Position numbers and translations under genes: made by a program | Notes under the pieces: generated by a model | Databases searched by the model: none | What the model was told of the DNA's origin: nothing | What the model saw: only the letters and a program-made list of their open reading frames with translations | In this document: piece by piece, positions 871 to 60,706 of the stretch | How positions within the stretch are numbered: the first letter of the stretch is position 1 | Layout: the number at the start of each line of letters is the position of its first letter | DNA from: Tubulanus polymorphus | Lineage: Eukaryota > Animalia > Nemertea | Length of the DNA: 64,000 nt | Direction of reading: 5' to 3' | Assembly: GCF_964204645.1 (NCBI RefSeq) | Contig: NC_134026.1 | Span: forward strand, 22,230,150-22,294,149

Positions 871-1061
871 CTAACACTGACAGCCGCTGTTCTGTTGATT
901 CGGGTTCTCCGTCAGACGCGTGCCCTTCGATTGATTGCTGACGATCGTCGGATCAGAGTCGAGGCTTTCGCTCATTTTGTCGCATATGATATCCACCAGT
1001 CGTTCGAATACGGCTTTAACGTTTATGTTCTCTTTCGCCGATGTCTCGAAAAACTCTAAAC
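871..1061 (-). CDS. Rab3: Rab3 last coding exon (G5 ETSAK, helix 5, hypervariable tail, CxC prenylation motif)
   Basis: ttcag|GT TTA GAG TTT TTC gives (G)[34 protein letters not shown]...SGCQC, then TAG followed directly by TAA. Phase 1 matches both exon-3 copies. Confidence 0.97.
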
Positions 1062-1210: not shown

Positions 1211-1462
1211 AGCCACGATCGCACAAGCGTTTTTGGCCTGTTCCAAGTTTGGCCAGGAACTACTGTTCACACAGATGCCCACTGGACTTGGTTTGTTTGG
1301 CCCGGCCAAAAACATCGGACCAGGCCCGAGCCAAATTCTAGCATGGGTCAAATTATTGCTACAGGTTTCGGAAGTGACTCATTTCGCTTTGTTTAGGTGG
1401 CTTACATGTGAACGTACTCTCTTATGAGGCATGGGCCAAATCGCCTCCGTGTGATCGCGGCT
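1211..1462 (-). mobile_element. MITE family A copy (Harbinger-like, TIR AGCCGCGATCACAC), internally deleted
   Basis: Ends agccacgatcgcac...gtgtgatcgcggct; internal sequence is homologous to 29176-29518 in the opposite orientation. Confidence 0.8.
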
Positions 1463-4400
1463 GATGTTTAAGATTGTGTAAATGGAGAGAAAAGGGTTAA
1501 AGATAAGCAAAATTTGGCATAAACACAGATATAGACATCATCAGTAGGAAGTCAAATTCAGGACATGCATATCGTTGAAGCTAATTGCCCTATTCAGAAC
1601 GAGTTAATCATCTATCTATTACAGTAATATGTATATACATGGATACAATATTAGCATGCTCATTTTGACATCTGATAATTTGATTATTTACAACTATGAG
1701 CAACATGCCATAAATCTACTACGACTGATGTCTATAAGCGCTTCCTTCAGAAATCTGATGTCAACCTGACTACGACCTACACAAATAACCCGAGATAATT
1801 TCCGCCAAATCTTTTAAATGTCGACGTTAAAGTAGACACAGCAGGTGATGCCGCAAACCAACCCAGAGCAGTTACGCATCAAACAAACTCTTTTCGCGAC
1901 AATTAAACCGGAAATAACAGAAAGTTCACTTCACAAGTTGAAAATTAATTAAATTTCCCAGACGCAGTTGAATCGACCTTGCAATTATTTCCACTCCGAG
2001 CAGTAGCTCTCAATACACGCAGAACACCTATTTGATGACGCAGCCTGCAGTGGCAATATTAAAGACTCTTTGATGTTTTCGGATTGTCGTTATTATTTCA
2101 GTTTCGTATACATGACCGCCTCGGGTAGCCTTACATACTCACGTTGTTAATACTTATCGATTGATTAGTCTCCGCACCTTAGAGTCAATTTTACCAGGGC
2201 GGATTCAAAAAATGAATTCTCAGCGTATTGACTTCTACTCGAAATGCCTGAATTCCATAACTTCACAAGGGGAAAACACAATGTATATACAGCAAAACAT
2301 TTCTGGGTGTTGAAATAATTGAAATCTGCCAATTCAAAGAAATCAATTCATTTCAAGTACTGTTCTCCCTATATAACAGCCAGCCGGTGCTACATACAAA
2401 TTGATTCGAATCCATGAGTCGAAATATTATAACGCGCTATTTACTTTATCAGAACCTTAATATTGATTCTCTGGGTGACAGTGCAATGACGGATAATGTA
2501 CCCCGTACTCTGTATGTGCACGCTGATAATGAAATAAATATTCAAATTCAAACAACTGTAACAGAAGATCGCAAGTTTTCTTCTATCAGATCTTCTCCAT
2601 CAGTACTGATCGTACTAGAAATGACTTTCCTATTCTAAAATCCGAATTCAGGTGAAGTGTACTGCATCGATCAATCAATTATGAATTCAAGTTCAATTAC
2701 GATATTCAATTTACTGCAGATGTTGAACAAATTATTGTCGAGTACGTTTAATTTGTGCTTAGAAATGAGGTAAGTTTAAAGATTGGGGACTTCGTCTGGT
2801 GGATGTAATTATTTTCTCATTTTGATTCGCGAATCAATACGCGGTTAACATTCATCGGTAATGGAATCAGTTCGTAATTTGTTCACAACTATCTCCGATT
2901 AATCGAAGAATAGACTAGGAAACAGCGAACCTGTTAACGCACCCTGTATGTCCATTAACAAATAAAACACGCAACCACTAATCGTTGACGCTTTCGTCGA
3001 AATGTCAAATGATTGTTTGCGTTATTCATCTTCTGTAGCGGATACAAGTTACAATGGTTGTCTTTTTATGTAGCATTTCAAATGGCATAATTATTACCAG
3101 GTACTCAATTCATTACTGAAACATACCTATAACCACCATCTAAAACAACCAGATGCAATGGATAAACAAACAAAAACCAATGAGATATCATAATTAAACT
3201 AAAATGGGCTCAGTTCGACTGTTGTGAGTTAGATTTGACGGAGTTGAATTTAGGCTAAAAAGTCTATTGTTTCCCCTTTCTTCTGAGCTTAGAAGTTGAC
3301 CCGGCCAACCGCCAATCTACCCTGTACATAAGTTTTTTACCATAACTATAGCTACAGAAATGAACTGATAACAAATGTCGCAAAGGTGTTACAAAAAGTG
3401 ACCAGGCCAGCTAGGAGAAACAAGGTATCTTTTTTAGCCTTAGCTACAAATCGCAAATTCTAACAACGAAACCACCAGTATAATTATTAGAACCGGTTCT
3501 ACTATTTTCATTGTAAAACCTCAGTTCAATAATCTTGAGAGTTCACCTGATAAACATGAGAATAGATATATACACATCATGACACAGTTCCATAATCATG
3601 AGTTAAAATTTCAGTTACAAAAAATTCAGATCGTCAACTCGACTTTGAACCGAGAAATATTGAACCGGTCTAAGCAAACATTCATAGACCCCGATATTGA
3701 CTTATCTCGAAAATTATGTGAAACCTCCGTGTAAGACATAACTGGTTTCACGGGTGACTACACAACACAATGCTGAATCGAAATCAACTTCAAACTGCGA
3801 CCCATCCATGCGCACGACGAACGATAGTGAATTAATTTCTAAATGTTCTGTTCCGTTGTTCGCATCGATGAAATTCGCACCAGTCAGAGAGATAAGAGAG
3901 ATTATACATGAAGATTTCAACGTAGGGAATTGTGTGTTGGTTCGTGACATGTCTGCGATCTTCATGCTAAAGTAAATTCAGACTCACGATGAATTACGGC
4001 GACGAGATCTGTGCACCTATGTTTGAAGTTGGTTTACATCATTGACATTGTGCATGTGTGTCCCCTTAAATGGTATTGAAAAATGCTCTATGTGCATTTT
4101 GTTTGTGGGTTAACTGTGCTTAAAATCAGTATGTGCAAAGTATGGACTTCCACAGATAAGATGGCTGTCTCGATGAATTCCATGGTGACATCACCAAATT
4201 ATGTAGTCATTCATTAACTCAGCTAATCGGCAATTAATCGTAATTAGTGATGCCATATGGGGATTTTGAGGAGGCAGCTTTCTTTTCTCTGGAAGGGTTA
4301 TGTCGATGGCAAATCAAAACCTTCCCAAATATGATTTAGAATTGATTTACCACCATGATGTGTCAATAACCTATCCGAATGGCCTCATGACAAGTTGCAG

Positions 4401-4710
4401 AATATCTACCGGTAACCATATTCATGGCCAGGGTTGTGATGAGAATTTAGTGGCAAAATGTTTAAAATCCTTTTTGATCATGGGCCCAAATGCCTTTTTG
4501 TCATTCATGCCCCAACATACCAAATCAAAAACAACATGCAAATTCATCCACTGAAAATTACACCTACGATTCATCTACAATTCAAGCAACTGACCAAGTG
4601 ACGAGTTACCATCAAACACTGCATCTACTTAAGGAAAAGGTCACTTCTACCAAGGACTCTAAATCATGCGAGATATAGAGCCCATGTTTCTACTGAACAC
4701 ATATCGTTAC

Positions 4711-4835
4711 CTAGTTGATCTGCGAGCTGTTTTCCACGTTCTGTCGAGACTACGCGTTCGTCTTCAAGGTCGCATTTGTTTCCCACTAGCACGACCTGCG
4801 CGTTGTCCCATGAATATGTCTTGATTTGGGTACAC
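4711..4835 (-). CDS. Rab3: Rab3 exon 3b (canonical copy, 125 nt, G4 NKCD)
   Basis: aattgcag|G TGT ACC...CAA CTA G|gtaacg; encodes (W)[41 protein letters not shown](G), typical Rab3 sequence. Confidence 0.96.
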
Positions 4836-4887
4836 CTGCAATTTACCACACATAAAAGATATGATACTTCAGGGCTTGCATATTCAC

Positions 4888-4984
4888 CATAACCGGCCAG
4901 CGAGCTGTTGGGTACAACAGCCATGTCTCTGTGGTCATTTTTGTTATTTTATTGACCAGTAATACCTGTGCATCACTTGTGCAC
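4888..4984 (-). pseudogene. Degenerate third copy of Rab3 exon 3 (pseudo-exon)
   Basis: tttttgtag|G TGC ACA AGT GAT GCA CAG GTA TTA CTG GTC AAT AAA = (W)[12 protein letters not shown]; distal AACAGCTCGC matches exon 3b; ends ATG|gtgaat. 97 nt, with deletions and a frameshift. Confidence 0.65.
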
Positions 4985-5114
4985 CTACAAAAAAGCATGA
5001 AGTGGTGTGGTTGCATGATGTCTCCCATCACCATTTTTGAGAGCTGAAGAGTAAGGTGAATGAGGAAAGTATCAGCCACCGAGCAACTAGCGTATGAGAA
5101 TTGAGGAGTACATA

Positions 5115-5355
5115 AGCCACGTTCACACTATGTCATTTAGAACATTCCAAACTTGAAACGGTCAAATTTTGATCAGACCAAGCATTCATACTACCTAAGT
5201 CTGTTCTAAATTGGCCCATTCCATGTAAAAACAGACTTTAGACTGAGCCAAGTCCAAATTAGGTTAGAACAGACCTTGCCTCTATGTATGAATGAAAAAT
5301 TCGCTTTGATAGCCCTTCCAGACCAAATTAGAACAGTGACAGTGTGAATGCGCCT
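5115..5355. mobile_element. Degenerate MITE with (GC)GTTCACACT-type TIRs
   Basis: cacgttcacactatgtca ... tgacagtgtgaatgcg; termini resemble those of 62216-62627. Confidence 0.5.
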
Positions 5356-7507
5356 ATAGTGCAGTCTGTTCTTAGTGAGATTTCTCTTTTCAGAAGTAAG
5401 ATAAAATTGAATTGGGAGATCACCAAAATGCATGAGACTACATCGCAGGATTTCTCTTGTTATTGAATCCTAAAGTGCATTTGTTTTCTGGAAAAGAGAA
5501 GTTGACAACACGTCTCTTTTTACTAGCATTGCTAAAATATTTAATGATCAGATTTTTTATAAAATATCACAAGGGGATAGGGTGTCCATAAATGCGAGCT
5601 TAGAAGGGTGGGGGTAGTGCAAAGAGAAATGACTGAAACAGAAACACTGTTTGATGTCCATCTAAAAATCTTTCTAGGAAAAAAATAAGCAACATAAGGA
5701 GATACAATCGTAACGGTAAGATAATCCGGCTTTTTCCCGTCGCTGAAAAGAAACGTGCTATAAGATCGTAGATGAAAAGGCTTTTAAAACATCCAGTTAC
5801 CCATGACATGTATTAACAAACACCAAGGGTGTAGGTATGGTCTGCACACACACATAATATACATATGAATATAGGGAGGATGCAGAAGTGCTCGGTATAC
5901 GTGATCTTAGAAACCTATAACTTATTATGGCATTGCTTTGTTTGATTTCAACAATTATGCAAGAGCGTTACGCACAAAATCAATTCACATTAATTCATCA
6001 CAGAATCTATTCATTTTCAATCTGAGTGCAGGATAGGATATGGAAGCTGAACGGAGGAACGAAAGAGGAAGTTTCTCCTACGTTAGTTTTGTTTGTAATA
6101 TCGATATTTTGCGCGTTCGTAATGCGCAGCAACAAATGCCAACAGCACGAATGGGCGCTAAAGTAAACATACTTTCTATTCTGTTTATCAATGTTCACAG
6201 GTTTGTTCAGAAAGCATCGAAATGGTGTATGACGAAAATAATGGTGTCTGATTAGCTATTTATCCAGTCAATAAGTTTGTGAAAATTTGACATCTGTAAG
6301 CAAAATATTCTGTGATGATAATAACCATAATATCTGTATTTGAAGTATGTGAATTTGCGACGAATTCCCTTGTAGCACAATCATCGTTGCAAAGCAGCTA
6401 CCGTCACAATCCAGCCCCCGCAATGGTGAATCGGCTGAAACGCATGAAGACAGAACACAATTAACTCACGCCAATCCCACTACGGCAATCTCATCAGAAA
6501 GTGTTGCATATCAACATTATTTAGAATGGTTCATTCGAATTTCATTTAAGCCAACAAAGACGTAATGTGCATTCGCTAGTTTTCTCGCGCTCTCTGTCTC
6601 TGGTACGGAGTGGGTAGCGCAATGCGACTGTCGGCTACAAGATAACAACACCTTTGCTTCTGCGCATTTCTTGGAAGTCAACATCAAAATATTTATGAAA
6701 CTTTGATTCAACCGAAATGATTTTTCTAATGTATTTTGACAACACTATCAATGGGGTAAATATCACGGGTGGCATTTAGAGTTAATTGCATTCAGCGTCT
6801 GCCTTCAAATCGACCATGCTTCTTCTTACCTCGAGTTAAGTTTCATCATGGATCGGCTTGACCTTTATTGCACCTACCTTATTTAACAAACGCAAGATCG
6901 CCCGACTTAAAGCCCGAACCCGAATTCAATTAAAACCTGAGGACCCGTAGATGATCCGTGATACCATCACCAATCCCTGAGGTACTGGCGGCGTACACAT
7001 CAAACATTATCGATTACCAATTACCATTTTGAGATATATATATATTCAAATACGAAATCTATGTATAATCAATGTTAATTTATGCAAATCAAATAATCAC
7101 TTTGACGTGCACTGATTAATCGTAGGGAGAATTGTTTTTGATTTGTGTGATATAGATGTCGTTTATCGTCTGCAAAACGCACCGAAATCAATCGATTATG
7201 GACAGACGTATAATTCACTTAAGAAATGCAGCAGACGAACTTGATATTGAAATATACCCGTCCACGAACGGGTAATCCGTTTAAACCAGATTTTGAAAGT
7301 ATCGTTAATCGATACAAACCGATAGGCCTCGACAAATAATAGGCAAACGTTCATATTACACAGTATCGATAATTTTTGATCCAGCGGCTCCATGTGATTA
7401 GTTAGCAATCCATCACCGAGGTTATTGTCCAACAATGACCCGAATGGTTGGTTATGGAATGTAGAACGTAAAACGACCGTCATTGTTCCGAGGATTTAGT
7501 TGGTTAC

Positions 7508-7632
7508 CTAGATTTTCGGCGAGTTTTTCGCCGACTTCCTTGTTGACCTTGCGGATGTCTTCACGGTCGCATTTATTTCCGACTAAGAGAACCTGTGCAT
7601 CCTCCCAAGCATGGGTTTTTATTTGTGTTACC
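7508..7632 (-). CDS. Rab3: Rab3 exon 3a (divergent alternative copy, 125 nt)
   Basis: Pyrimidine tract, cctaacctcag|G GTA ACA...AAT CTA G|gtaacc; encodes (W)[41 protein letters not shown](G). Same length and phases as 3b, no stops. Confidence 0.9.
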
Positions 7633-7735
7633 CTGAGGTTAGGAGAGGAGAGAGAGAGACATTTTATATACAAAGTATATCTGATCGTACAGACACCCTA
7701 GTGGTTTCAGGCATATCAATATGCAACAAGAAACA

Positions 7736-7931
7736 TTAACCCTTTCCTGCCCTGTTGCTAAACTGCTGGCCTCTGATATCAGAACTTAGAAAATGACACC
7801 AAGTATTGTAAATTCTTTCGTTAAAAGTAGTACCGGTATACAGTTCAAAAATCATTTTCTGGATTTGTACAAATTGTGGCCCGGTTCATCACTTAACCTT
7901 CATTTAAAACAAAAGGGCATGAAAGGGTTGA
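7736..7931. mobile_element. piggyBac-like MITE
   Basis: ttaa-ccctttcctgccc ... gggcatgaaaggg-ttga: CCCTTT TIRs with TTAA-like flanks. Confidence 0.65.
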
Positions 7932-8744
7932 AAAAAATTGAAATACTCATTTGCAAAGGCTCATGAATCATCAAAATTCTTATTTCGAGAGCATAGATTT
8001 ATAGATTTTAAAATGGCAGTCACAGATCTCTGTCAAAGCGATGAGATTAAGGCGGTTGCCGTATAGCGACTTAATCACATCGCTAAATGAATCGATCTCG
8101 ACTCGAGAGACTTCCCGTTCATGATAATTTAATGCTAAGTTAACATCTCTCGCTAACAAGATTTGTTTTCTTTTGCTCGATAATAAGCTGCAAAAATCCA
8201 ATTTTGCATTGAATTTATGAACTGGAAGAAAAGCCAGAAAGACATTATTTCTTCAAACGTGGAAGTACCTTACTTTAAATTGTTAAGAGTGGGCTTCATG
8301 CAGATAGAGGAAACACAGCAATCATTCTCTTCATAATGTTTAATCACATTCGAAAATATCAATATTCAACCATAAAGAACTATCTTGGATATTGATGTTA
8401 TGTTGGCTATGTAAGAGCGAGCTCTGCAGTTGAAATTCAAGCTCTGCAGAATACATTTATATTGATCAGTCAGATCTGATGTTAATTCACCAAAATAGCT
8501 AGTATTTGGTTTTTTGAAACATTAACAAGTTTTATGACCGAACCAAAATGTATTATCAATTGTTTAAAATAGGAGTCTAGAATTCAGAAACCGAGATTTG
8601 TAAATCAAACCAATTTGAATCCCTAGTGATGTGGAATATATTCATTAACTGCAGAACTGGTTCTTGAGTATGTTGCAGTATTATATGGTCTAGTATCCCG
8701 TAGAAAAGCACCTACGAGCTCATAGCTATTGGAGCCAACACATG

Positions 8745-8761
8745 CCCCCCCCCCCCCCCCC
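8745..8761. repeat. C17 homopolymer (G17 in the Rab3 pre-mRNA)
   Basis: Read directly. Confidence 0.95.
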
Positions 8762-9552
8762 GCTTACGCATTGTAACAATGCTGTTAATTTAGCTGCACA
8801 ATGATTACCAGTAATTTCTCCGTCATGGCAAACGATGCGAAGAAACGATGCAGCCATTCATCACCAGACTCCATCGCCGACGCCGCCGCATCCATGACAA
8901 CGGGCCGCGATTTATTGGCTCTAAGTCACGATATAACATCCATTATGTTCATAAGCTGATCAACAGATTTTTCAATAACGAATGCAGTTATACACGCGCC
9001 CGGATTCAGATTTATTACACGTTACAACCACACAGGGTAGGCTGCGAGTAACTTAAGAGATGCTTTCCGTGCGTTACTAAGGACGTTTTATGCCGGGGCA
9101 TTGGGTGTTGAGAACGTTATCATTAAAAGTTAAAGAGGGCAGCGCTATTGCAATATCATCATCTCGAGAGAAGGTCAAGGGTACAATCGGTAGGAAGATG
9201 ATTTCTTAGAAATGAGTAGGAGTTGCTACTATTATTGTTGCTCAACCGGGAACTTCCCGGAGTCAATGATGCACGCGATAAAAAGAATCGATGGTGCTTT
9301 ATAATTTCATTAGCGGATCAATATAAGGACATCAAATGAATTGATCATTTCTATATTTAGTAAATGAACTTTGTCATCATCAAAGTGAAGGTTCGGCCAT
9401 TGAGTCAGCATCAACGACGACGTACTAACAAGTGAGTCGGTCTTATTAATGGCGAAATTGAATTAGCAGATGACAGGATGAACTGAAAACCCTTCAAACT
9501 CATTCGAGCACACGCAACGAGTAGATCTACGTAAAAGTCGGCGAACACCTAC

Positions 9553-9671
9553 CAATCTTGAACGGCGTTGAATGACTCTTCGTTTGTGACATCGTACATT
9601 AATATGAAACCCATAGCACCTCTGTAATACGCAGTTGTGATCGTTCGATATCGTTCTTGACCAGCCGTATC
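9553..9671 (-). CDS. Rab3: Rab3 coding exon 2 (G3 DTAGQE, switch II), absent from the ORF track
   Basis: ttcag|GAT ACG GCT GGT CAA GAA...CAA GAT TG|gtaggt; [39 protein letters not shown](W), 119 nt. Confidence 0.97.
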
Positions 9672-9857
9672 CTGAAAGTGAATAGAAGAAATGAAAGCCA
9701 ATGCCATTATATCATATCACAGGTGTTTTCATTCGTTTCTATACTCTGACATTTAATAAATAGCTTATCGACTAATTTAAATGTATGGATTAGTCTAATC
9801 TTTGTCATTGTTAATACTGATTTCCTTGAAATAAGGGCAAATGATATTTACATCCTT

Positions 9858-9911
9858 TGCACGATAAAATCAGGAATATAAGGACTCCTTACATTCCTGA
9901 TTTATCGTGCA
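9858..9911. repeat. Near-perfect 54-nt palindrome/hairpin
   Basis: tgcacgataaaatcaggaatataagga-c-tccttacattcctgatttatcgtgca. Confidence 0.85.
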
Positions 9912-11970
9912 GGACAAAGTTCATATTTTTGTAGAGGTCCTTACGACATCACTGACCTCAAATGCATGGTTACTAATTTGATGGATGTATAAACTAAGTT
10001 TCTACATCCATGCTCTTCCAAGATACTTTTGCACTGCCACAAGCACCAAAATATCTAACCTATCAACAAGTACATTTTCATTCAAAACGAAGCTACTTCC
10101 TAAATTTCCAGAAGAATCAATGGTTTACTTTGCAGCGATTAGACATCAGGCCTGGCAATCAGTCCATTTCCAATCACTATAAAGCTACTTTAACTATAAA
10201 TTGAATATATTGGGCACATAAATAAAGGCATATCGATTTGCTTTCTAGTTACTTCTTTGAGGCAAGATATTTCAGATCTAGCATTACAGTACCAGTACTT
10301 GTTGGTAAGGTGTCGAGGTTCATTTAGGTAATTCTAAGGTGTCTTGACTACCAGCAAGTACATTTGATACTCCAATACAATTTTGCGTGGGCAAGATGGC
10401 AACCATTCGACGTCATTTATTTCATCAGATTACTTTGCGCGAGATCTACAATCCATTAGTACTAAGAGTCCATATGCTGCGAACGCGCTTCTTCGTTTCC
10501 TGACAAGAGGAAGGTCGTGCTAGGCGCATCACCGGTTCGAGAAAAGCTAGGTCGTGAACTAACGACGACATCTTGTATTACCACAAACATCTATAATTCG
10601 TCTTGAAGATTGATGAAGGATGCTGGCGATTAATGCATTAGTCACTAGGCGCAGGGGTTCACTCCTTGTGCCACTACAGGATCGAATTAAACATTCAGGG
10701 GAAGCACGAGTAGACCTCAATCAACTTATCCTCCTGTGAGCGGTAGCAGCCTTGACTGGTTGCTTTTGTTAATCTATTCAACTTCAGGCGGAGGCCTTTG
10801 ATTTCACATTCCGATATACGCTGCCACTATCTTGCAAATCGTCTATCAAGCCTTATTCCGCAATGACGAGTCATCAAGATCAACTTTGCATAAACAGATG
10901 GCGGATTTATGCCATAATTGAAGCCGTTCGCGTCGACTCTCGGCATCGTTTTAATGAATTTTGCACGCAGCGTAGACTGGGTATAGTAATAAACCCGGTC
11001 AATTTTTATGCGGCGCAAACACGGAATAATGATGGAATCGTGTTTGGTGCCAGTTGGTAATGAAATCGCCACTGAACTGATTGGAATACTAATGAGACCG
11101 ACAACGCAGCAGCCCTGAGACTGCGCTTCTATAACGAGAGAGTGGTCTCTTCAAGAAATGAAACCGTGCATAACCGTGTCAGCGCCTGGACAACCAGTTC
11201 TCAATCATCATCAGCCTTTTTTTTAAAGATTATCCAACTCAACTGACTGGAGGCAATTATAGTAAATATTTCCATTATCGCTAATTGCCTACTTAAATCA
11301 TACCCTCGACAACGTTATACTTGACACAATACCTTCGTATCATTAACCAGTGCACTTAGATGGCTTCGTGTATGATTGAATTTTGACCCGATATCGACTA
11401 ACAGCGCCGAGACACGACTCTATCAGAATTTCCAATGAAAACACGGGCAATGATGAAGTTGAAAAAAAATATATGACAACATGCCAGATGCCATGTGAGA
11501 TAGATACTTAGGACTGCGAGAGGAAGTAGGCAGAATACCAAAACAAGTTTTCTTATCGCAAAAAGAGCTTTCGAGACACCTTCCTTGATAAATCTACCGG
11601 GATCGCCGTATTTTGTCATCCGAACATCCCACAATCTCCAATGAACTTTAGAAGAAAAGAGAAACACAGTGAACAATTTTTTTCACGGAGAACTAAAAGC
11701 AAACATCAACAATACAATCGGGGCTTTATTTTGAAGCTTCATATTTGATGTTGTTGATGATATGAAATTGAGCGGATGATAACAAGGACCAAGCATTATA
11801 TTGATTCGTACGTGAGACAAATGTCGTTTCTCTCACAGCAAACATAGTGATTACTTTTTGAAGAGTGACATTCATACGCGTATAATACCTCAGGGAATAT
11901 AAATAGGAGATATATTTGGCTTTATTTGTGAATAAGGCTATCATTCCGTGCGCGTATCTGTTCTATCGGA

Positions 11971-12455
11971 AAACAAGGGGTCCAGGGAGGTAACAGGTAA
12001 TAATCCCCCTGGTAGAAATCCCCCTCAGGAACAAATACAGTGATCAATGATTTTGAAACTATACCACAATCATTCAAATTGGCACGGATCAGGCTTGGGC
12101 CAAATTTGGCCCGTGCCTAATTAGAGAGTGCGTTCACACGCAAACCATTCACTCGATACTAAACGATGCTCAAACAAAGCGAAGTGGATCATTTCCGGTG
12201 CCAGTTGCAATTCAAACGCAATCATTTGTCTGGTGCTAAAATTTGGCCCGGGCCTGGTCTGACGTTTTTGGTCGGGCCAAATTTGGCCCGGGCCAAACAG
12301 GCTGGGGCCCATTTAGCACCTGTGTGAACAGTTATTCCAGGCCAAATTTGGCCCGGGCCAAAAATGCTCTTGTGATCGCGGCTATAGAACACGTCATGAG
12401 CTACAACAGCAATTGATTGTGGTTACAAAATATACATGTAGGCACCAAAATTAAT
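11971..12455 (+). mobile_element. Truncated Helentron-type element (relative of 32882-33969) interrupted by a MITE
   Basis: Starts aaacaaggggtccaggga like 32882; one repeat unit (gaaactataccacaatcat / atagaacacgtcatgagctacaac...ggttacaaaatat) is split by the MITE. Confidence 0.7.
12075..12383 (+). mobile_element. MITE family A copy, left end missing
   Basis: Nearly identical to 29209-29518; ends tgtgatcgcggct. Confidence 0.9.
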
Positions 12456-12617: not shown

Positions 12618-14122
12618 TCGTAAACGATGTCTTTTAATGTGGCATTTAATCACTTGATGGTTTCAGTGTTTCTGAGTAAAATCTGGCTCTCGGTGAATTA
12701 GAATTATTGAAAAGCTGACTTTAAACTAAGTCAAAACTGTGGAGCTGGGTCCTGAAGGTATTCTGAAGAAATGACGAAAGAAATTTCTGATGATTTCATA
12801 CACTCCGTTGAGGTTCACTTCGATTATTCCTTTTTAAATCCAGATAATGGATTCTCGGTGATAAAACAACCATTTTGCGTAACACCACAAGGTATACATT
12901 TCAATTCCTAAAAGCCAGTAATTTGCTAATGACTTACTTACGTCAGGCTTACTAGCACCGAGTTCAAACCATGAAGAGAGAATTTTCAGCAGGCTGTGTA
13001 TTACTGTATTTGTCAGTTCTAATCACAACTGATTAACTACTGAAACCCACGTCTTTACTTCCATTAACGCACATTAAATTCCGACCCCACACGGATGAGG
13101 TTTCCACATTGCTGTCTGTGATAAAGACTTCAAGCACGCAACAAAATCTCAAAGTTGAAATATGACAGTGGGTGTTTTATGCAAAAAGTTAAATTGAATG
13201 AGAAAACTAACTTGGAAGTTTATTGAGGTATTGAAAAATAACACATTTTATAACTCAATATCGTCAATGAATAACATAATATGAAATTATATAATATTAA
13301 GGATCACTTAAGTTATTTTGGATTTGAATATGGATAATTGAATTGACCGGCAACCAGTCTAGCCCCAATATATTGATGACATCCTCTCAAAATTAACCAT
13401 CAAAATTTTGCAAATATGAAAAATAAAAAAAAAATAAATAAATTAATTAAAAAAAATTAATTAAATAGAGTTAAATAGAGTTAATAGAGTTATGAAATAT
13501 AATTAATTACAAAATAAATGCCAAAATTCCCAATTGTAATTGTTATTTTGAAATGCCAATATTGATGACATAGTGCACATAACGCATACTAGGTATCATT
13601 TGTTACAGTTTTTACGGCGTCAAAAAATATAGGAAGCTAAACGATACTCCAGTTGTAAACCTGAAAACATTCACCATTTCTTGTGTGAAGTCTTAAATGA
13701 ACTTTTTTTTGGAAATGACGATGAACGGTGATAAAATGTCAGGTGTGTTTTCCGTCAGTGCAATTCGAAATTTTGAATACGTTCTTCGAAGACGTTCTTC
13801 CTGCATTAATGACACAAGAGATTTCCAAGGTTGCAAAGGATTTCTATGTTTCACCCACTCGGCTTGGGATTGACTCGGTAAGCTTTACCGCAACTATAAA
13901 CAATGTTATCATCCCTACGGCTGCCGGTGGAAGACAACCACTGATACTTTTCAAACGATAAACCCTCGAGATCTATAATACCATTTTCAGCCTCCGGCTT
14001 TTGCGTTGGAGGGAGCATTTGTATTACGCATTGGATAAGCTTACAAAGAATAATGCTTTGTATTGCGTAAACTGGGGAGTTAAAAGTCAAGCTGAATATC
14101 AATACTGAACTTGAGGGTCTTT

Positions 14123-14425
14123 AGCCGCGATCACACTGGGACGATTTGGCCGGGGCCAAATCGGCAGGATCAGGCCCGAGGCAAATTTGGCCCGTGCCTA
14201 ATGAGCGAGCACGTTCATATGTAAACCGCTCACTAGATACTTAACAATGCTCAAACAAAACGAAGTGAGTAATTTCCAGAACCAGTTGCAATTTACACGT
14301 AATAATCTGACCCGTGCAAAATATGGCCAAGGCCAAACAGGCAAGAACAGCCATTTGGCACCCATGTGAACGGTTGTTCCGGGCATAATTTAGAACTGGC
14401 CAAAAACACTCATGTGATTGCAGCT
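14123..14425 (+). mobile_element. MITE family A copy
   Basis: agccgcgatcacac ... gtgattgcagct; collinear with 29176-29518. Confidence 0.85.
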
Positions 14426-16817
14426 AATAACATCCACATTAAAACCGCGAAGATAAACGAAATTGAATTTTATCATCTGGGATTCAGCCTTTCTCTCGAA
14501 GATGTAGTTGAGTATCATCAGTATGATAATTCTCCTGACAGTACATACAAGTTACCCAAAAAGATAGCATGGTATGCTGCGATCTTTAATCACACGCAAA
14601 TCAAATCAATGACCAATTCAATTCTTCAAATCATGTAACTAAATCTAGAGCTACATCGGCCGAAGAAAGTTCATCAAGCCATCAGTTTCGTAGTAATACT
14701 GCGATGTATACGAACATTGACAAGCCGCATACACATACATACGCAGCTTCCAGCTAGAATTTCGAAACATATTAGATTACATCGTTCGAAAATCAAATCA
14801 CGCAGATTACCGCGAAGAAATAAGGTGACACTTTTCGCAAAAGAGCGAGCAATTTAAAGAGAATATCTTACAATAAGCCTTGTAAGGCATAAAAAACGTT
14901 TAGGCATAAGGCTAAGCTATTGAAAGGATATATTTCTTTCTCAGAATTGCACGATATCCAAACTACGCAGCGAGATGGCCAGCCGAGACACAACATCGCT
15001 GTCAAAGCAAATCATCTACGGTTATCGGTGGTGCCTTTTGGAAGGATAATGGCTTGCATAAGAAAATGGCTTCTATCCATGAACACATTACTGAAAATCT
15101 ATGCACAATATTCATTCGATCATGAGTACGACCATGATCATGGAATTCATGAAAATTCCAAAAACTAGACCATGATACTAGATACCTAATGTATCTATTG
15201 ATAATCTTGTAACCAGTGTTCTTCTGATGTGCAAATGCAATAGATATACTCCCTATCCTTTTAATATAAGTGCCTTTTCGAGGAAAACACCATTTAAAAG
15301 ACATTGGGGTACACTACGTTGCTTTTCATTACCATAAAAAGTAAATCATGAATGATCAAAGCTTTAAGTGTGTCAAATATATATGCAAATAGCACACACT
15401 TATAAAAGTTCAAAGTGGAAAAAATGAAAGATTTACAGTCATTTTCAATGGAACAGAAATTCTGCATTAAATGCACAGTTTATTGAACCACGACTCGACG
15501 CTGCTATTTCTGGTTTGATTTTCAATATAACGCGCAGTGCAGAATTCATAATTAACAGCAAATATATTTCGTATGCAGATCATGAAACAACTGCGATAGT
15601 TCTCATCGCGTTACGAACATCGATGTCTTCGCTTCATCTTCAATTCTGTAACAATTTCGCGGTGAAGTGACTCTTCATGGGTTCTCGTACGCGCGCCAAG
15701 AGAGCTCATAACGACTGGCGATACTGGCCCTAGTACAGCCATACACCAAACAGACTCATCAAAACAAAAACTGCTTCATTTATACGTTCATGCATGTGGT
15801 CGCCGTAAAAAACCGTTACAATTATGTTTATATACATTCTGCGGCGTAATATAAGGGGTTCTGTGTAAGACGATGTGCACTACATCATCAATATTGGCGT
15901 TTCAAAATAACGATTACAATTGAGAATTTTGGCATCTATTTTGTTATCAAATCTGTTTCATAACTGGTATGTGCATATCGAGGCTAGACTGGTTGCTGGT
16001 TAATTCAATTCAATTATCAATACATTCAAATCCAAAATAAAAATTGATCCTTAGATATCATAAAATTTTTCATTCATTGTCGAGAATTAAGCAATATATG
16101 TATCATTTTTCAAGGCATCAATAAACTTCCAAAATAGTTGTCTTCTTTATTGAAATTCATGATTATGAGTTTGGATTTAACTTCAATACTTAAAATATAT
16201 TGAACTCTGTTTAGTCACAGATTTACACAGAAAAGCAACCGGGCTCCAGTGTTTTTGGGTGAAACTTTTTCACGTTCACTTACAAATAAAGTGTTGATTG
16301 AATTGAATTGACCTTTTGAAATCATGGTTGTTTCTTCTTCCTCTTGCGCATACTGGACGCCTTCATCAGTTTGAAGATTAAGCCAGTTACGCACTTGGAG
16401 TCCGTTAAAGGATATGCCAAATTCATAATCCATTAGGCAACTATAATCAATTAGGTAAACTGTCACAGCTATAGATCTGTGTAAATTCTTATATTCATAT
16501 TCTGAGTAGTTATTTCCACTGCAGGCTTACATGCCCCTCTCTACATTTATTTAGTTTATTCAATACATTATACCTGAAAAGGCTGAAGTGACTAAGTGAA
16601 ATTGATCGTACTAGAATACATACCATTTATAAAGGATAGGTTTTGTTTTAGTTACACGATCCTGTTGTCGCTTTATACGTTATGCAAAATTATCTGTAAA
16701 CCGATGGTTTGTGTGTTTCAAGCTTTATACGCTGGGCCGATGGAAACTTTTTCATTACATAAGATATTCGAGATGCGAGATACGCCATACGCGATAGAGT
16801 TGAACATCTTTACTTAC

Positions 16818-17042
16818 CCATATTTGTAATTTGACTCGTTTGTCTTGTCTGAATACTGTCTTCACTTTGAAATCTATTCCGACCGTGCTGACGAACGCCG
16901 ACGTGAACGAATCATCCGCGTATCGAAATAAAAACGACGTCTTACCGACGCTACTATTTCCGATGATTAAAAGTTTGAACATATAATCGAAATTCTGATC
17001 GGCGGCGTCTTTTTGCCATTTCGAGTCGCTTGCTGAAGCCAT
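16818..17042 (-). CDS. Rab3: Rab3 first coding exon (G1 GNSSVGKT, switch I)
   Basis: ttttctag|ATG GCT...ATA TGG|gtaagt; [75 protein letters not shown]. The acceptor directly before the ATG implies an upstream non-coding exon. Confidence 0.98.
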
Positions 17043-27861: not shown

Positions 27862-28290
27862 CTTGTATAATGGCGAGCTTTGAAAAGATTTATTTTTTGA
27901 ACTGTGTAGTCTATAGTATCGATCGCGTTGTTGATATTCGCGACTGCGACGACGAATACGCTGCTGTTGTTTTCGTTTATGAAACTGTTGTTGTTGCTGC
28001 TGCTGCTGCTGCGGTGGTTTGTCTCCGCCGAAATTCTCTCGTTGCATTGTCCCGCATTTTGAGCGTTAATCGAAGTAGCCGGCGTCGGCGCCCGGAGACT
28101 CGCTATGAAGACGACACATCTACTATGTACGCGGTCGGAATAATAGCGCGGCTGTGGTTGGACTGTGTAGAGCGAACACACATCTGAACATACGAGGAGG
28201 ACTCGTTCGTCGTTGGCTGTCGTGGTGTGCAGATGATGACGACAACGGGGGCCACTGATGGATGACTGACTGCCTAGCTGTCGCTTTTAA
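27862..28290 (-). promoter_or_regulatory. Candidate non-coding first exon/promoter of Rab3
   Basis: CpG-rich segment with (CAG)n(CAA)n, ending at a good donor AAG|gtaatg at 27862. The upstream boundary is approximate. Confidence 0.5.
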
Positions 28291-28422: not shown

Positions 28423-29175
28423 GAGTTTGACTCGATAGTTTGATAGTAAATTGTTCGATTAAACCTTAGTCAAATTCAGAACTGAGTCGAGAATCTCGGT
28501 GGAAATTTGACCAGTCGGTTAATGTCCCTGACAGATGTGGTGGGTTTGTAAGGGGCAGCAAATCAAATCAAAAAAGCGAGGAACTGTGGAACTGATGATC
28601 CAACTGTGGAACTCATTAACCAGACCACAGACAGTTAACATTTTGCGTTGAGGTTGAAGTTTTTTTTGTACCGACCAAAACATATCATTAAAACCGAAAA
28701 TAGTCCTGTCCACCGAACGAGGAAACTCATACTTGTTAAGGGGTAATCTGTTATCCTAAAAGCCCCTGAAGGGATGCCGTGATTTTACATTTAGTCACGT
28801 ATGTCGGCACAATTTTGCCGCGGTTTTCTAATTGGTTCAAAAACGACATGATTTCGTTTCGTAATTGAAACGAAAAACGCTCGGCGAAACATAAGAATTG
28901 ACATCATATATCTTGATAACAACACGATTTGATGGAAACGCTTTCATTATTCAAATCCCGAGCGATTTTGACACAACGAATAATGCAAATCCCATCATGT
29001 AAAGGCCGCCATGCCAAAGCTGTTTGGAGAGAAAAATAGTCGCGATCGTCTGAAAGCAAGTCAAAATTTATTTGAAGCATGGCCCATTCATTAAAGCATG
29101 AATTCATGCTTCCGTTCGCCGTATGTTCTACTAAGAGGAAGGGACGTTGAAAATCAGCAAAATCCGTTATTCAAT

Positions 29176-29518
29176 AGCCGCGATCACACGGACACGATTT
29201 GGCCCGGGCCAAATTGGCACGGATCAGGCTCGGGCCAAATTTGGCCCGTGCCTAATTAGAGAGCGCGTTCACAAGCAAACCATTCACTCGATACTAAACA
29301 ATGCTCAAACAAAGCGAAGTGGATCATTTCCGGTGCCAGTTGCAATTCAAACATAATCATTTGTCTGGTGCTAAAATTTGGCTCGGGCCTGGTCCGACGT
29401 TTTTGGTTGGGCCAAATTTGGCCCAGGTAAAACAGGCTTGGGCCCATTTGGCACCTGTGTGAACAGTTGTTCCGGGCCAAGTTTGGCACGGACCAAAAAT
29501 GCCTGTGTGATTGCGGCT
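29176..29518 (+). mobile_element. MITE family A, full-length copy with AAT TSD
   Basis: aat|agccgcgatcacac ... gtgtgattgcggct|aat; internal palindromic tttggcccgggccaaa motifs. Confidence 0.9.
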
Positions 29519-30485
29519 AATGATTAACGAAGGATTCGAAAAAATATTTCCCGGTTTTCAATAGAAAACTAATGAAATTGAACACAAGTAAAGCCTAGGG
29601 TTTAAGCCGTACCCGGCCTACAATGAATCCATCTTTGATTATTCCCATTACTGATTAGAGCCATCAGCACCTGCTACGGCGAGATAAAAGGAAATATTAT
29701 CAATAAAAGTCAACAGCAATCAGGCGAAAAAGAAAAGAATTCAGATTCCGGTGTACCCATCAGTACCCTGATCGGAAATAAGAGAGCGCCGCGATATTTT
29801 ACTTCGTTTACATGACAAAAGATTGAAGATAGAGACAGGTGTTGTCCGAACAGAGGATGGCGTACCGGGTGGTATTCATTGAAAGCAGTAATATTTACGC
29901 GGAAACTATAAGATCATAACTTCTTCCGTAAGTGGCCCAAAGCGAGGTACAAGACAATAACGTGTCGCTGTATGGAACGTCAAAATTCTTAAAAACTGGT
30001 AACCGAACCGGAATGAGCCTCTCAAAATCACCTTCAACTAATCGTTTTAGGTTCGTATCATAAAATAAGAAAAGTCTAAAACAAACAGGAATTATATATA
30101 ATTCTACTCAAAACCAGTATTGACTAAAACTGAACCACCCGAACCGGAATTAAGACTCGATGAAAACCAAAGAAACTCACCTTGAACGAATGAAAAAACT
30201 TTTTTATAATATTTTTTTTTCAAACAAATTTGGATGCTATTCCAAAACCTCCGAAACAAATGAGACACTACTTAAAACAAGTTGACTGCAAAATAACCAC
30301 AATGTGCACCCGCCTTTATTCATTTCTATAATTCATGTCTTTGATAATCAGGTCTTAGCGTGTACCACTCGAAAAATAGCGTTTGGTTGAGTGATCAAAC
30401 ACAAAATTTATCCGAACGTCTTTAGTATTGCCACTACATGGCTTACTGTTATATATCAAATACACCATGTTGATTTCGGCACCGG

Positions 30486-33969: not shown

Positions 33970-34251
33970 CATAGTAAGGGATGGCAGGCGCAACATAATA
34001 ACATTCATTTTTCGTTCAGAGCAGAGTAATATAATAATATAGGTATCAAATATCATTCTCTAAATGGGAATGAGTTAGGTTATTGATAGGTTTATGATAG
34101 GTTATTGAAATTTGTACAACCTATATGCAGAGTGGCTACCTTGTTTTACAGTGGATTGGATCCATGATACAGGCTAGATTATCAGTACTGGTTATGGTAC
34201 AAAGACTATAAGGACCGATATTTACCCATAACTATGGGTTCATTCAACTAT

Positions 34252-34574
34252 TGCTGTGATCACGCAAACATTTTTGGCCCCTGCCACACAGGCATGAGCT
34301 AACCATTCACCCGGGTGCCAATGGGCCTGTGCTTGTTTGACCGGGGTCAAATTTGGCCCAAACAAAAAGTCGGACAGGCCTGTGTCAAATTTTTGCACGG
34401 GTCAAATCATAGCATGTGATTGCCTACCAGTTCTGGAAGTGACTCGCCTCGCTTTGTCACAGCATCGTTTAGTATCAAGAGAGTAGTTTACACGGGGACG
34501 CGTTCTGTAATTAGTTACAGGCCAAATTTGACTTGGGTCTGATCCGGACCAACCGTCTCCGCGCGATCGCGGCT
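34252..34574 (-). mobile_element. MITE family A, diverged copy
   Basis: tgctgtgatcacgc ... gcgcgatcgcggct; reverse orientation relative to 29176. Confidence 0.75.
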
Positions 34575-37500
34575 AATTAGTCACTTGAGTAAACTCCAGG
34601 GTTCAAGTCAAAAACATGTCTTTAATCTAACCTAAAGCCTGGCGCAGACGGGCGACTTTTGATCACCTGGTTGCCACAACCAGCAATCAGGAGAGCTTTA
34701 ACCAGTGGAACTGTGACCAAAAGCTTGCTTCATAGTCCAGATGACGATTAACCCCAGGAAAACAAATTAAAAACTGTTCATTCATTTCCATCTTGGTAAA
34801 GATTTTATCCCTGTAGGGAAAACCAGTTTCTAACATTTACCACTTAGTACCATGATACACATGAACTTATATTCCGTTGGTTTTTACAACAAACAATTCA
34901 GTAATTGGCGTGCAAAAATGAGTAGGCTGGCTTCAGCAATAAATAAGAAACAATTATGCCTGTGATTTCAACCAGTTAGCCTATTCAGGTTGTACACTAG
35001 TATTTTCTTTTTTAGGCAATAACAGATATGAAGAGAATTGACAGATTAAAGAATACATTGAGCGGTGATTCGTGTTAAAAACAGAGAAATATTTAGAATA
35101 AATACAACACAAAATGATGTGGTACCTGCATGAGCCCGTCTGCCCTCATTTCACGTTATAATACACGGCACTAAACAATCAAGAAGAAAAGAAAATACAT
35201 TTCTTACTCTGTAATAACCTTTGATACAAGCAGCGGTAGCAGTTCGATCATCGGCGAATATCATTAACGCTTTCGTATTCGAAGACATATTTACTGATAT
35301 TCGGCATCATCGAAAATAGTCCTCGGTTTAGAATTACAGCAGAACCTCATCACAAACCGTAAATTATGTCCCGAATTAGAAAATTTGACGACACCATATC
35401 ATACCAAACTATCGGTTAACATAACTGGGCTTTGGTAATAGATTTACAGATCCTGATATCGTTAATTATAATGAGGATGTTATGCTGTAGATTATTTACA
35501 AATGCCCGAAATGCGTTACCGGACATGGAATTTTATCCGAGCACGCGGCTTCTTGTCAGCAATCTCAAGCGCGAGCCTCGCTTGATGAATTATCATTCAT
35601 CTAAAATTTATAGCCTATATGTAAGTTGCAGCAAGACAACTAAGAGACACAGCCTTTCTCTCTAGGGAATTGGATCGAATTAAGAATTCGATCAGAATTA
35701 GATGCCGGTCGGTTGCCTCATACGAATTTAATGTTCACTTTACAGTAAATGATACAATTAATGCTGAATTGATTATCGACTAACCTAGTAACATCAAAGC
35801 ACAGACAGAAATGGTAAGTATTGAAACCTATTTAGGCCTACAGATTTTACTTGTAATGAGTTTTACACGCAAATCCTATATTTGAGCACAAGCACTTGAA
35901 TGGGTTTTCGATACTGGAAGTATAATTGATAATCCACAAGAATCCTACTTCGATCATCAGCCATTTTTAGAACAATGAATTTATCCATGATGCACCACAC
36001 ACCCTTTTCTATATCTATATTATACAGTAGGACAGGAAATGATCTTCTCTGCCCTAATGCTAAGTTTACGACCAATGATATTGGGATATAAACCAAACAC
36101 TACCATTGATAACCTAAGTTGGTTTCTGGAACGAGATTTTTATCCTGAATTATCATTCTAGATGACTATTAGATGACATTGGCCAATGTTATTACATATT
36201 AGTATCTGGCTAGAAAAATTATGAAATGTTCATCAATAAATGAGTGGGGAATTCAAATACGATCACTAGATGGCGTGTCATGGGTGCTTTGTCGGAAATA
36301 CCTGTATGCATCTTCGGGATTGCTGTGACGTCTGTCGTCCTGACTACAACGGATATAAGCTAAGCATTACTACTAAGAGATAGGACTGTTTCCTGCCTTT
36401 CTGTATAGAACAGATAGAAAAGGGACACGTGTTGATGATAATGGGTTAATTCCTTCGAGCTTGTATGTTGTTGGGCAGATGATGAAGAAATTGAACACTA
36501 CATATCAGCAGTAGTGATCACTAGTGGATATTTTGTTTTCACCAGTATCAAAGCCCATATTCAAGTGCCTGTGATTTGAGGTCCTCAGAGAAGCAAAATA
36601 GAAGAATTAGTGACTTTATCGTTCAGTTAAAACGGCATTCCCTGTTTGGCAAGTGAGCCAGAAACTGGGCTGGAGACGGAGTAGTCTAAAGTGGAATGTT
36701 ACAACAACCAAAACCATCAACTTTAACCTGCATAAAAAGACTCTGAAACGGCCGAAGCTTTATTCTTTACCCCTCATACTAGACTGTAGTTGATGAATTA
36801 CCATAAAATTGTATTCTGTACAAAAGTCTTGCCTAAAAAAGCAATGAATCTGGAGATTTACCTGAATTTCTTCTCACACTTCAAAATTCGGCTCCACAAA
36901 TTGAAATGAAGAATGTTTACTAACTACTAAGACCTCTAGCGCCATCTGACCGTAACAGAATTCGCGATTTTTATTAGGTTCGAATCCCGATCAAAATGAA
37001 TATTTAAAATGATATTGAATATTCATAGATTTCTCAATGATATCTATTTGAGTTATTCATATGGTATTGGCAGTAATTAGTCGTCTTGGCTACATGTATT
37101 TGCCATTGCCCATTGGACAGGTTTTTATTCCAACCTTATCAACGACGAGATTTTTCGGCCTAGAGTCCCAGCTACCACTGGGTGTGAACGGGTAGTGTTG
37201 GGATTTTTTTCGAATGTAAAAATTAATGAAAACGCTTTGTAAAAATTGTCTTCTTATACTTTGCCATCAACGTCGCATGTCTTATAAAAAGGAAAACAGA
37301 TACAAAAAAATTAGAATCAATCGAATTGTTACTGGGGGTACTGAGGGTACCGGGGACCCAAGGGCCCGCAAAGGAGTGACCCCCCCTTTGCTCATCTTGC
37401 CATTAAATCCTTATACCCTTAGCTAAGTTAGTTACCTAATCGTTGGTGGTAAGCTTTTTATAATCGGATGGATTTATGTGAAAATATCCGATCGTGAAAC

Positions 37501-51612: not shown

Positions 51613-52528
51613 CTGTAAGCAAAAAAGATATTTACATATTTTTAAACATGTGGTTTTGAAATTCCAGTCGAAATACAGGTTGTTTTGAAAATCAATCTGG
51701 TGATTGAAATGAACTGATGAATCATCAGCCTCCAATCATGCACATGCAAAGAGTGAAAAATGAATGGCAAAAATCTGTGCCACATTTTTGGAATTTTTCA
51801 GATATTTCAACTAATGAAAATAGACACAAAATCGATTTCCAAATGATTTGAATCTGAATAATAAACATATTAATTGCATTCTAGAATTCTAGAGTTACTG
51901 GAACGAAATAAAGTCAGCTTCAATCATTGAAAAATCTTGAAAAGTTGGGCCTGATATTGTTGTATGACTTAAACAACTGTTTTTAATAGCCGAAATTATT
52001 TGCCACTTCGAATCAGCTAATCAGAGAGCACCAAAATATGAAATCATTGCCCTTGATCCAAATTACAGATACATGAAAGCAGAAGATCTTAATGAAGTTG
52101 ATATTCCAAAATTTATTATGGCAAAAATATGGAAAAATTGAGATCCAGCTTAATGAGGCTTAAAGCATCTTAGTAGATGTCTGCATCGTCTATCTATAGA
52201 GCTGTATCATTCGGCGAAAACATATCAATTTCTTTCCCCAAAAATCAGATTGTTCACAGCCACCTGATTCCTCATGAATATACTATGCAAGACTGCCTTT
52301 GGACCACACGCAACAAACAGGACGTTGACTGTTAATATGTTGATTGGCACAAATTCTCAAGAATATGACAATAAACATTGTTCTTCCCCCTGAAGGAAGT
52401 CAGCCAATACCATCAAGATTTGTTTCTGTATATGCACATGACCATCATTAGTAATCATTTTTTCTGCTGCACGCATAACAGACATACGAAAAAAAAATAC
52501 AGACAAAATTTCATTCACAACAACCACA

Positions 52529-54415
<1,887 letters not shown>

Positions 54416-60499: not shown

Positions 60500-60706
60500 A
60501 GCTGAAGACAAGAGACAATTTGGCCCCATGCCAAATTGGCACGGATCAGGCCCGCGCCAAATTTGACCCGTGCCTAATTAGAGTGTGTTCATCACGCAAA
60601 CCACTCAATTGACCCTGAACTTATACAAAGCGAAGTGAGTCACTTCCGGAACCAGTTGCAATTCACACGCAATTATTTGACCAGTGCTTAAATTAGGCTC
60701 AGTCGT
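60500..60706 (+). mobile_element. MITE family A, partial copy
   Basis: ccaaattggcacggatcagg...cccgtgcctaattagag...caaagcgaagtgagtcacttccggaaccagttgcaattc is homologous to the 29176 copy. Confidence 0.8.

Follow-up and report, generated by a model that had tools for sequence, protein, structure and literature searches.

The Rab3 gene of the nemertean (ribbon worm) Tubulanus polymorphus contains two intact 125-nt versions of one internal exon, each of which completes a Rab3 protein of 219 residues. The best explanation, very probably the right one, is that the two exons (3a and 3b) are used one at a time and give two predicted 219-residue Rab3 proteins, of which the alternative one likely binds effectors differently. 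Rab3, a switch protein that helps the release of neurotransmitter vesicles, ranks with the most strongly conserved proteins of the presynapse, and from corals (YSWxN) to humans its CDR2 motif is unchanged. The exon pair is real, old and annotated, yet apparently undescribed. The features discussed below were located in a stretch of 64,000 nt, here called the window.

35126..35149, minus strand: alternative 5′ coding exon for an 8-residue N-terminal extension, as in RefSeq isoform X4 (P0228); GT follows
27862..28047, minus strand: alternative 5′ coding exon for a 62-residue Gln/Arg-rich extension, as in RefSeq X1/X2 (tblastn 100% identity); GT follows
16818..17042, minus strand: shared exon 1 of the 219-residue frame, with ATG, CDR1, P-loop and switch I; 225 nt, phase 0
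9553..9671, minus strand: shared exon 2, with DTAGQ, switch II and the start of helix 3; 119 nt, ends in phase 2
7633..7659, minus strand: strong, CU-rich acceptor of 3a, with 20 of 22 pyrimidines and a putative regulatory role
7508..7632, minus strand: alternative exon 3a, His-Ala-Trp type; 125 nt, residues 116-156, matching RefSeq X2
4888..4984, minus strand: decayed remnant of a third exon-3 copy, with deletions; its AG and GT enclose 97 nt, and the 3b acceptor follows after 52 nt
4711..4835, minus strand: canonical exon 3b, YSWDN type; 125 nt, matching RefSeq X1
4506..4669, minus strand: three GCATG words, a possible RBFOX-type enhancer, within 205 nt downstream of 3b
871..1061, minus strand: shared last exon, with G5, CDR3, the hypervariable tail, a CxC prenylation motif and the stop

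On the minus strand of the window, the Rab3 frame is assembled from 17042-16818, 9671-9553, one 125-nt exon and 1061-871. As the original prediction stated, 3a (7632-7508) and 3b (4835-4711) are both exactly 125 nt long, run from phase 2 to phase 1 between AG and GT ends, contain no stop and keep NKCD intact. Both are directly preceded by CAG and directly followed by GTAAC. They are homologous exons in tandem, on the same strand and between the same flanking exons; sequence comparison found no second copy of any other coding exon in the 64-kb window. The predicted one-of-two rule also holds. Either exon alone yields a 660-nt coding sequence for 219 residues, whereas inclusion of both yields 172 residues, the stop falling 75 nt ahead of the last junction, and omission of both yields 129 residues, with a stop 46 nt inside the last exon. 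A single DNA contig of run X1, which may be the window's own source, spans 1434-12116 with one difference, and 3a and 3b therefore lie on one molecule. In RefSeq models with the extra 5′ coding exons (28047-27862, 35149-35126), 'exon 3' becomes exon 4. Mollusc models carry an 8-residue N-terminal extension resembling that of 35126-35149.

A high-copy interspersed repeat of about 300 nt occurs both in and outside the Rab3 introns (12075-12384, 14122-14428, 1210-1441, 29175-29521, 34248-34552 and 60514-60698), and its summed contig depth in run X1 reaches 30,000. Intron 1 holds two inverted copies of another repeat (13201-13580 and 15873-16143), about 2.3 kb apart and 76-88% identical. A 1.9-kb near-perfect (CA)n tract of 944 copies at 52525-54413 accounts for a skew spike.

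The peptide of the last exon is a 100% match to the named Rab-3 of Tubulanus polymorphus, whose cluster is made up of two members, XP_074644075.1 (X1) and XP_074644076.1 (X2). X1 ends letter for letter in the 3b isoform and X2 in the 3a isoform; the predicted isoform pair is already in the annotation, as automatic models. A word-index search with the 41-residue 3a peptide returned no match, the X2 protein being clustered under X1. The best PDB match of the 3b peptide is Rab3A (E=1e-20); the 3a peptide is diverged, yet nearest to Rab3 structures (E=1e-11). Both isoforms are of Rab3 type, with intact G1-G5 motifs and a C-terminal CxC. The RabSF3/CDR2 signature YSWDN is found only in isoform B, where isoform A has HAWED.

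In the Logan proteins P0012 (219 residues; longest contig, 4,173 nt) and P0042 (221 residues; 1,444 nt) a 3a-type exon is joined in frame to the exons on either side, and the short contigs behind them are probably spliced mRNA. Run X5, guessed to be RNA, comes from a relative, its exons being about 85% identical. One of its contigs joins exon 1 to exon 2 and stops at 9552, one base beyond exon 2, where 3a (GG) and 3b (GT) would fork. At 85% likeness the run covers neither exon 3 nor the last exon, other small variants are present in it, and this contig end is at most a weak hint. Separately, the GenBank models P0011 and P0022 wrongly join both exon copies.

Aligned without gaps, 3a and 3b are identical at 82 of 125 nucleotides and 25 of 41 residues (tblastn E=4e-14). 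Different codons are used for 11 of the 25 shared residues, in line with the prediction, and identity at codon positions 1, 2 and 3 is 28, 34 and 18 of 41 (positions 1 and 2 against 3, Fisher p=0.0007). The NG86 method gave dN 0.30 and dS 2.43, and LWL85 gave 0.30 and 1.39, that is, a dN/dS between copies of 0.12-0.22 with dS near saturation (the ML dS of 32.7 was unusable). In simulations of neutral decay to an equal nucleotide distance, 0 of 20,000 runs kept at least 25 identical residues, while 19% remained stop-free. This codon-shaped divergence and the simulation bear out the view that the duplicated, mutually exclusive exons are under protein-level selection. The two copies have moved at different rates: over the same 11 taxa, one congeneric pair among them, mean pairwise identity is 66% for 3a and 96% for 3b. 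The faster evolution of 3a would be compatible with a minor or relaxed isoform.

The original prediction had taken the second exon to be peculiar to this animal, and had counted absence or decay of 3a in relatives against itself. Neither proved to be so. Among the matches listed (120 of 463, a further 120 of 7,908, and the listed members of related clusters), 3a-type exons occur in models of 23 named species from four lophotrochozoan phyla: Tubulanus, the brachiopod Lingula anatina, the bryozoan Watersipora subatra and, among molluscs, the chiton Liolophura, ten gastropods and nine bivalves. The CDR2 loop reads His-Ala-Trp in 22 of the 23, and His-Thr-Cys in Physella. All 22 of the named 3a exons tabulated, Physella being left out, share H122, A123, W124, V129, G133-D137, R142, L152 and L156, and none has Asp at position 125; the count is partly circular, since the type was assigned by this motif. 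The same-species isoform pairs compared (Tubulanus, Lingula, Gigantopelta and Watersipora) differ solely within the swapped exon in all four cases. A third type, Met-Tyr-Ser-Trp, is present in Haliotis rufescens X2, beside a canonical X1 and a His-type X3, and in Lineus longissimus.

In the arthropod/vertebrate, echinoderm/hemichordate and coral clusters sampled, only the canonical exon was seen. Ten clusters with arthropod, vertebrate or like-type representatives contributed 122 newly listed members, the large clusters being sampled (e.g. 15 of 307), and a non-canonical exon was found in 0 of the 113 exon-bearing proteins among them. The same was true of 13 members of an echinoderm/hemichordate cluster and of the 15 members listed, out of 27, of a coral cluster. 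Octopus (3 of 3 isoforms listed) and two annelids have the canonical form alone, which is no proof of absence.

Several records depart from these patterns. The two listed Watersipora models are of the His-Ala-Trp type and the Met type (P0158, X2), with no fully canonical one between them. Among 150 listed of 431 matches, the rotifer Didymodactylos (P0212/P0256) and the records P0408, P0409, P0500, P0410, P0416 and P0481 have two exon-3 copies or His-type exons. In Didymodactylos and in P0408/P0409 the canonical-like copy comes first and the divergent one follows about 40 codons on, an order reversed with respect to Tubulanus; the array is either pan-spiralian or has arisen again. Some of the gastropod 3a exons P0026 (Physella X2), P0042, P0237 and P0238 alter G4 (GSKSD, ANKCD) or lose the CDR2 Trp, which suggests relaxed or changed nucleotide handling. 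The scorpion Rab3 P0115 has the Tyr-to-His change alone and is otherwise canonical.

The swapped exon encodes the end of helix 3, the CDR2 loop, β5, the G4 NKCD, the CDR5 loop and helix 4. Its two versions differ at 16 of 41 residues, and the switches are common to both isoforms. In 3a the core and G4 residues are kept, as is the key CDR2 Trp; His-Ala is fixed before this Trp, Asp125 is lost, and CDR5 and helix 4 vary freely. In fly Rab3, WDN124-126 forms the second CDR, in the α3-β5 loop (PMC4552854), and CDR2 overlaps RabSF3 (PMC9308819; PMC3327705). The SGAWFF motif of rabphilin binds the Rab3 CDRs (PMC9308819), and in Rab11 a second effector site is formed by CDR5, which is the β5-α4 loop (PMC5902227). 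Because the exon encodes both the CDR2 loop, part of the rabphilin-binding pocket, and CDR5, isoform A is likely to differ in effector binding. The isoforms would share switches I and II, the nucleotide motifs and the lipid anchor, and their differences would be confined to helix 4 and the loops of CDR2 and CDR5, with the SGAWFF-like motif of rabphilin-, RIM- or Noc2-type effectors docking on the CDRs. Whether isoform A is, as its residues predict, an active, prenylated GTPase with a changed affinity for such effectors is an even call. The AlphaFold2 model of isoform X2 has a mean pLDDT of 42, and no structural mapping was drawn from it. By comparison with Rab27A, His-Ala might make isoform A Rab27-like. 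This idea is a lead only: the likeness was not seen in the alignments looked at, and a plant Rab8-type protein has His-Ala in the same register.

The changes in 3a could instead reflect constraint by the fold, with no distinct effector specificity, the exon being spliced at a low level mainly to tune Rab3 dose or to provide a weakened isoform. We consider this doubtful, though it is the alternative that survives best. It would fit the lower cross-taxon identity of 3a noted above, and it would fit the fly, in which Rab3 WDN124-126AAA still localises and rescues the active-zone distribution of Brp (PMC4552854). Given these alanine mutants, CDR2 may be of little weight at synapses. However, His-Ala at two surface-loop positions in 22 of 22 exons, with Asp125 lost in all, exceeds what fold maintenance would require.

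A tree built on the 41 columns groups the named 3a exons (SH-aLRT 85/UFBoot 93, with three scallop-type rows at 37 residues), and a second tree on full 41-residue rows does the same (90/87). Support for 3a monophyly is 71/71, again on full rows, once rows without a species name are added. The shared motif, the shared position and parsimony argue for a single origin: the array very probably arose once, in an early lophotrochozoan. The established dating of these phyla would place this event more than 500 million years ago. Several independent tandem duplications converging on His-Ala are improbable. In their favour, a duplication confined to Tubulanus is not rejected (p-AU 0.066), removal of the three motif columns leaves 0% of the bootstrap trees with the 3a grouping, the exon order is reversed in the rotifer models and P0408/P0409, and Tyr-to-His has occurred in isolation in P0115. 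On the other hand, the best trees unite the 3a exons, dS between 3a and 3b is saturated, and two identical substitutions together with the loss of Asp125 recur in four phyla. Moreover, the His-type exon is upstream of the canonical one in Tubulanus and comes first in the fused GenBank models of Nucella and Batillaria.

The prediction had counted just two copies. An intact third type exists in Haliotis rufescens and Lineus, as described, and the window itself contains a decayed third copy (4984-4888). In this remnant the exon-3 homology is spread over three reading frames, and its acceptor is an AG with 16 of 22 pyrimidines. It was spotted by eye ahead of a scan with a frameshift-aware protein profile, made from 136 homologous segments with the window's own proteins excluded. 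In that scan it ranked third in the 64-kb window after the two real exons, with 27.6 bits against 20.8 for the next hit, a score that none of 1,000 Markov resamples of the intron, and none of 44 real tiles, attained. DNA alignment was blind to it: blastn gave E=3, nhmmer did not list it among its matches, and in a glocal DNA scan it fell below background. It scored 43 with Tubulanus 3a, 40 with two Met-type exons, 40 with human RAB3A and 35 with 3b, and can be assigned to no type. None of the splice combinations that include the remnant restores the frame (148-170 aa). With 52 nt between its end and the acceptor of 3b, steric exclusion may once have applied to the remnant and 3b. It is scarcely credible that 3a itself is a pseudo-exon lacking expression, or that gene predictors have stitched in an artefact of assembly: the RefSeq XP_ models of Tubulanus are automatic and some GenBank models (P0011, P0022) fuse both copies, but 3a shows codon-shaped divergence with no stop or indel at saturated dS, its splice sites are intact, it shares one contig with 3b, 3a-type Logan proteins are in frame, and the neighbouring remnant shows how decay looks at this locus.

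The acceptor of 3b is weaker than that of 3a, with 12 of 22 pyrimidines, and the donors are alike. Downstream of 3b, where 250 nt would be expected to hold 0.23 GCATG words, three are present; the p value of 0.0018 is uncorrected and rises to about 0.07 when all 42 motif-region tests are allowed for. The splicing behaviour of RBFOX and PTB is established knowledge. Taken with the acceptor strengths and the GCATG words, it points to a regulated use of 3b favoured in neurons or muscle. The choice would be made at the acceptors, 3b being favoured in these tissues by the downstream RBFOX-type sites and 3a being used elsewhere or at a lower level; the tissue part of this model is tentative, and we lean slightly against it. 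Transcripts including both exons would be cleared by nonsense-mediated decay, which probably acts as a back-up against double inclusion. Such decay has been described as a way of achieving exclusivity when exon length is not divisible by three, and steric exclusion by a short intron is likewise a described mechanism (PMC6071210). Double skipping puts the stop inside the last exon, and junction-dependent decay would not clear it. Steric or U2/U12 exclusion between 3a and 3b is ruled out by the 2,672-nt intron and by both donors being GTAAC. For the pairing of 3a with a 20-nt arm at 5874-5893 the energy is -27.7 kcal/mol, but about equal values were obtained for 1 of 42 control tiles and for 2 of 5 other exon-intron pairs, so that an exon-masking RNA duplex at this position is not above chance.

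The automatic RefSeq X1 and X2 models of Tubulanus hold the same proteins as found here, and equivalent models of molluscs, Lingula and Watersipora the same exon swap; these Rab-3 models come with no statement on age or function and no mention of a remnant exon. A search of mostly open-access literature, PMC9741552, PMC9714508, PMC4814827 and bioRxiv 591974 included, found no description of a Rab3 exon swap, though supplements of genome papers could list one. RAB3A and RAB3C have 0 occurrences in a catalogue of human tandem exons (PMC8373072). That the isoforms are already in RefSeq and that the class of mechanism is known limit the surprise. Nevertheless, an old exon that rewrites CDR2 while the switches are kept is a natural experiment on whether CDRs set the effector specificity of Rab proteins, a role supported by the rabphilin structure and not by the fly mutants. 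The question is directly testable in molluscs, classical models of synaptic release, in which work on 'Rab3' may have dealt with a mixture of two or three isoforms. On a bolder and rather unlikely reading, spiralians would have inherited a cassette of two to three exons (His-Ala-Trp, Met-Tyr-Ser-Trp and canonical) that has swapped effector loops by tissue for more than 500 million years. It would supply a CDR2 absent from vertebrate and arthropod Rab3 and redirect the protein from synaptic-vesicle effectors to another secretory route; its members would have been gained and lost, one loss being caught in decay here.

Tandem either-or exons are a known class of mechanism, RAB6A and RAB37 being examples. 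RAB6A and RAB6A′ are nearly identical, whereas the Rab3 copies differ at 16 of 41 residues. As in Rab3, an internal tandem exon of human RAB6A/RAB6A′ gives Rab isoforms of the same length (PMC8373072; PMC4814827). However, the RAB6A swap involves 35 residues of switch II and is dated to Vertebrata (PMC8373072), while the Rab3 swap leaves the switches shared. RAB37, of the RAB26 family, has an ancient internal exon pair dated to Bilateria in a secretory Rab, which resembles the case of Rab3, and the residues in which its versions differ make up a patch on the surface that is presumed to alter its partners (PMC8373072). It is nonetheless another exon of another gene, covering the P-loop and switch I, and is shared with Drosophila (PMC8373072). 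The Rab3 swap, unlike that of RAB37, was seen only in spiralian sequences among the matches listed. The SNAP25 exons 5a and 5b are developmentally regulated. Like the Rab3 pair they are either-or duplicates in a presynaptic release protein, but SNAP25 is a SNARE and its exon, of 39 residues, is dated to vertebrates (PMC8373072). Finally, the original prediction saw the exon pair as a stand-in for the vertebrate paralogues RAB3A-D, and this does not hold. These are separate genes which, in PDB alignments, vary in the β5-α4 loop and helix 4, as 3a and 3b do. None of RAB3A, 3B, 3C and 3D departs from YSWDN in CDR2, the very motif that 3a rewrites, and the overlap is confined to the β5-α4/helix 4 stretch.
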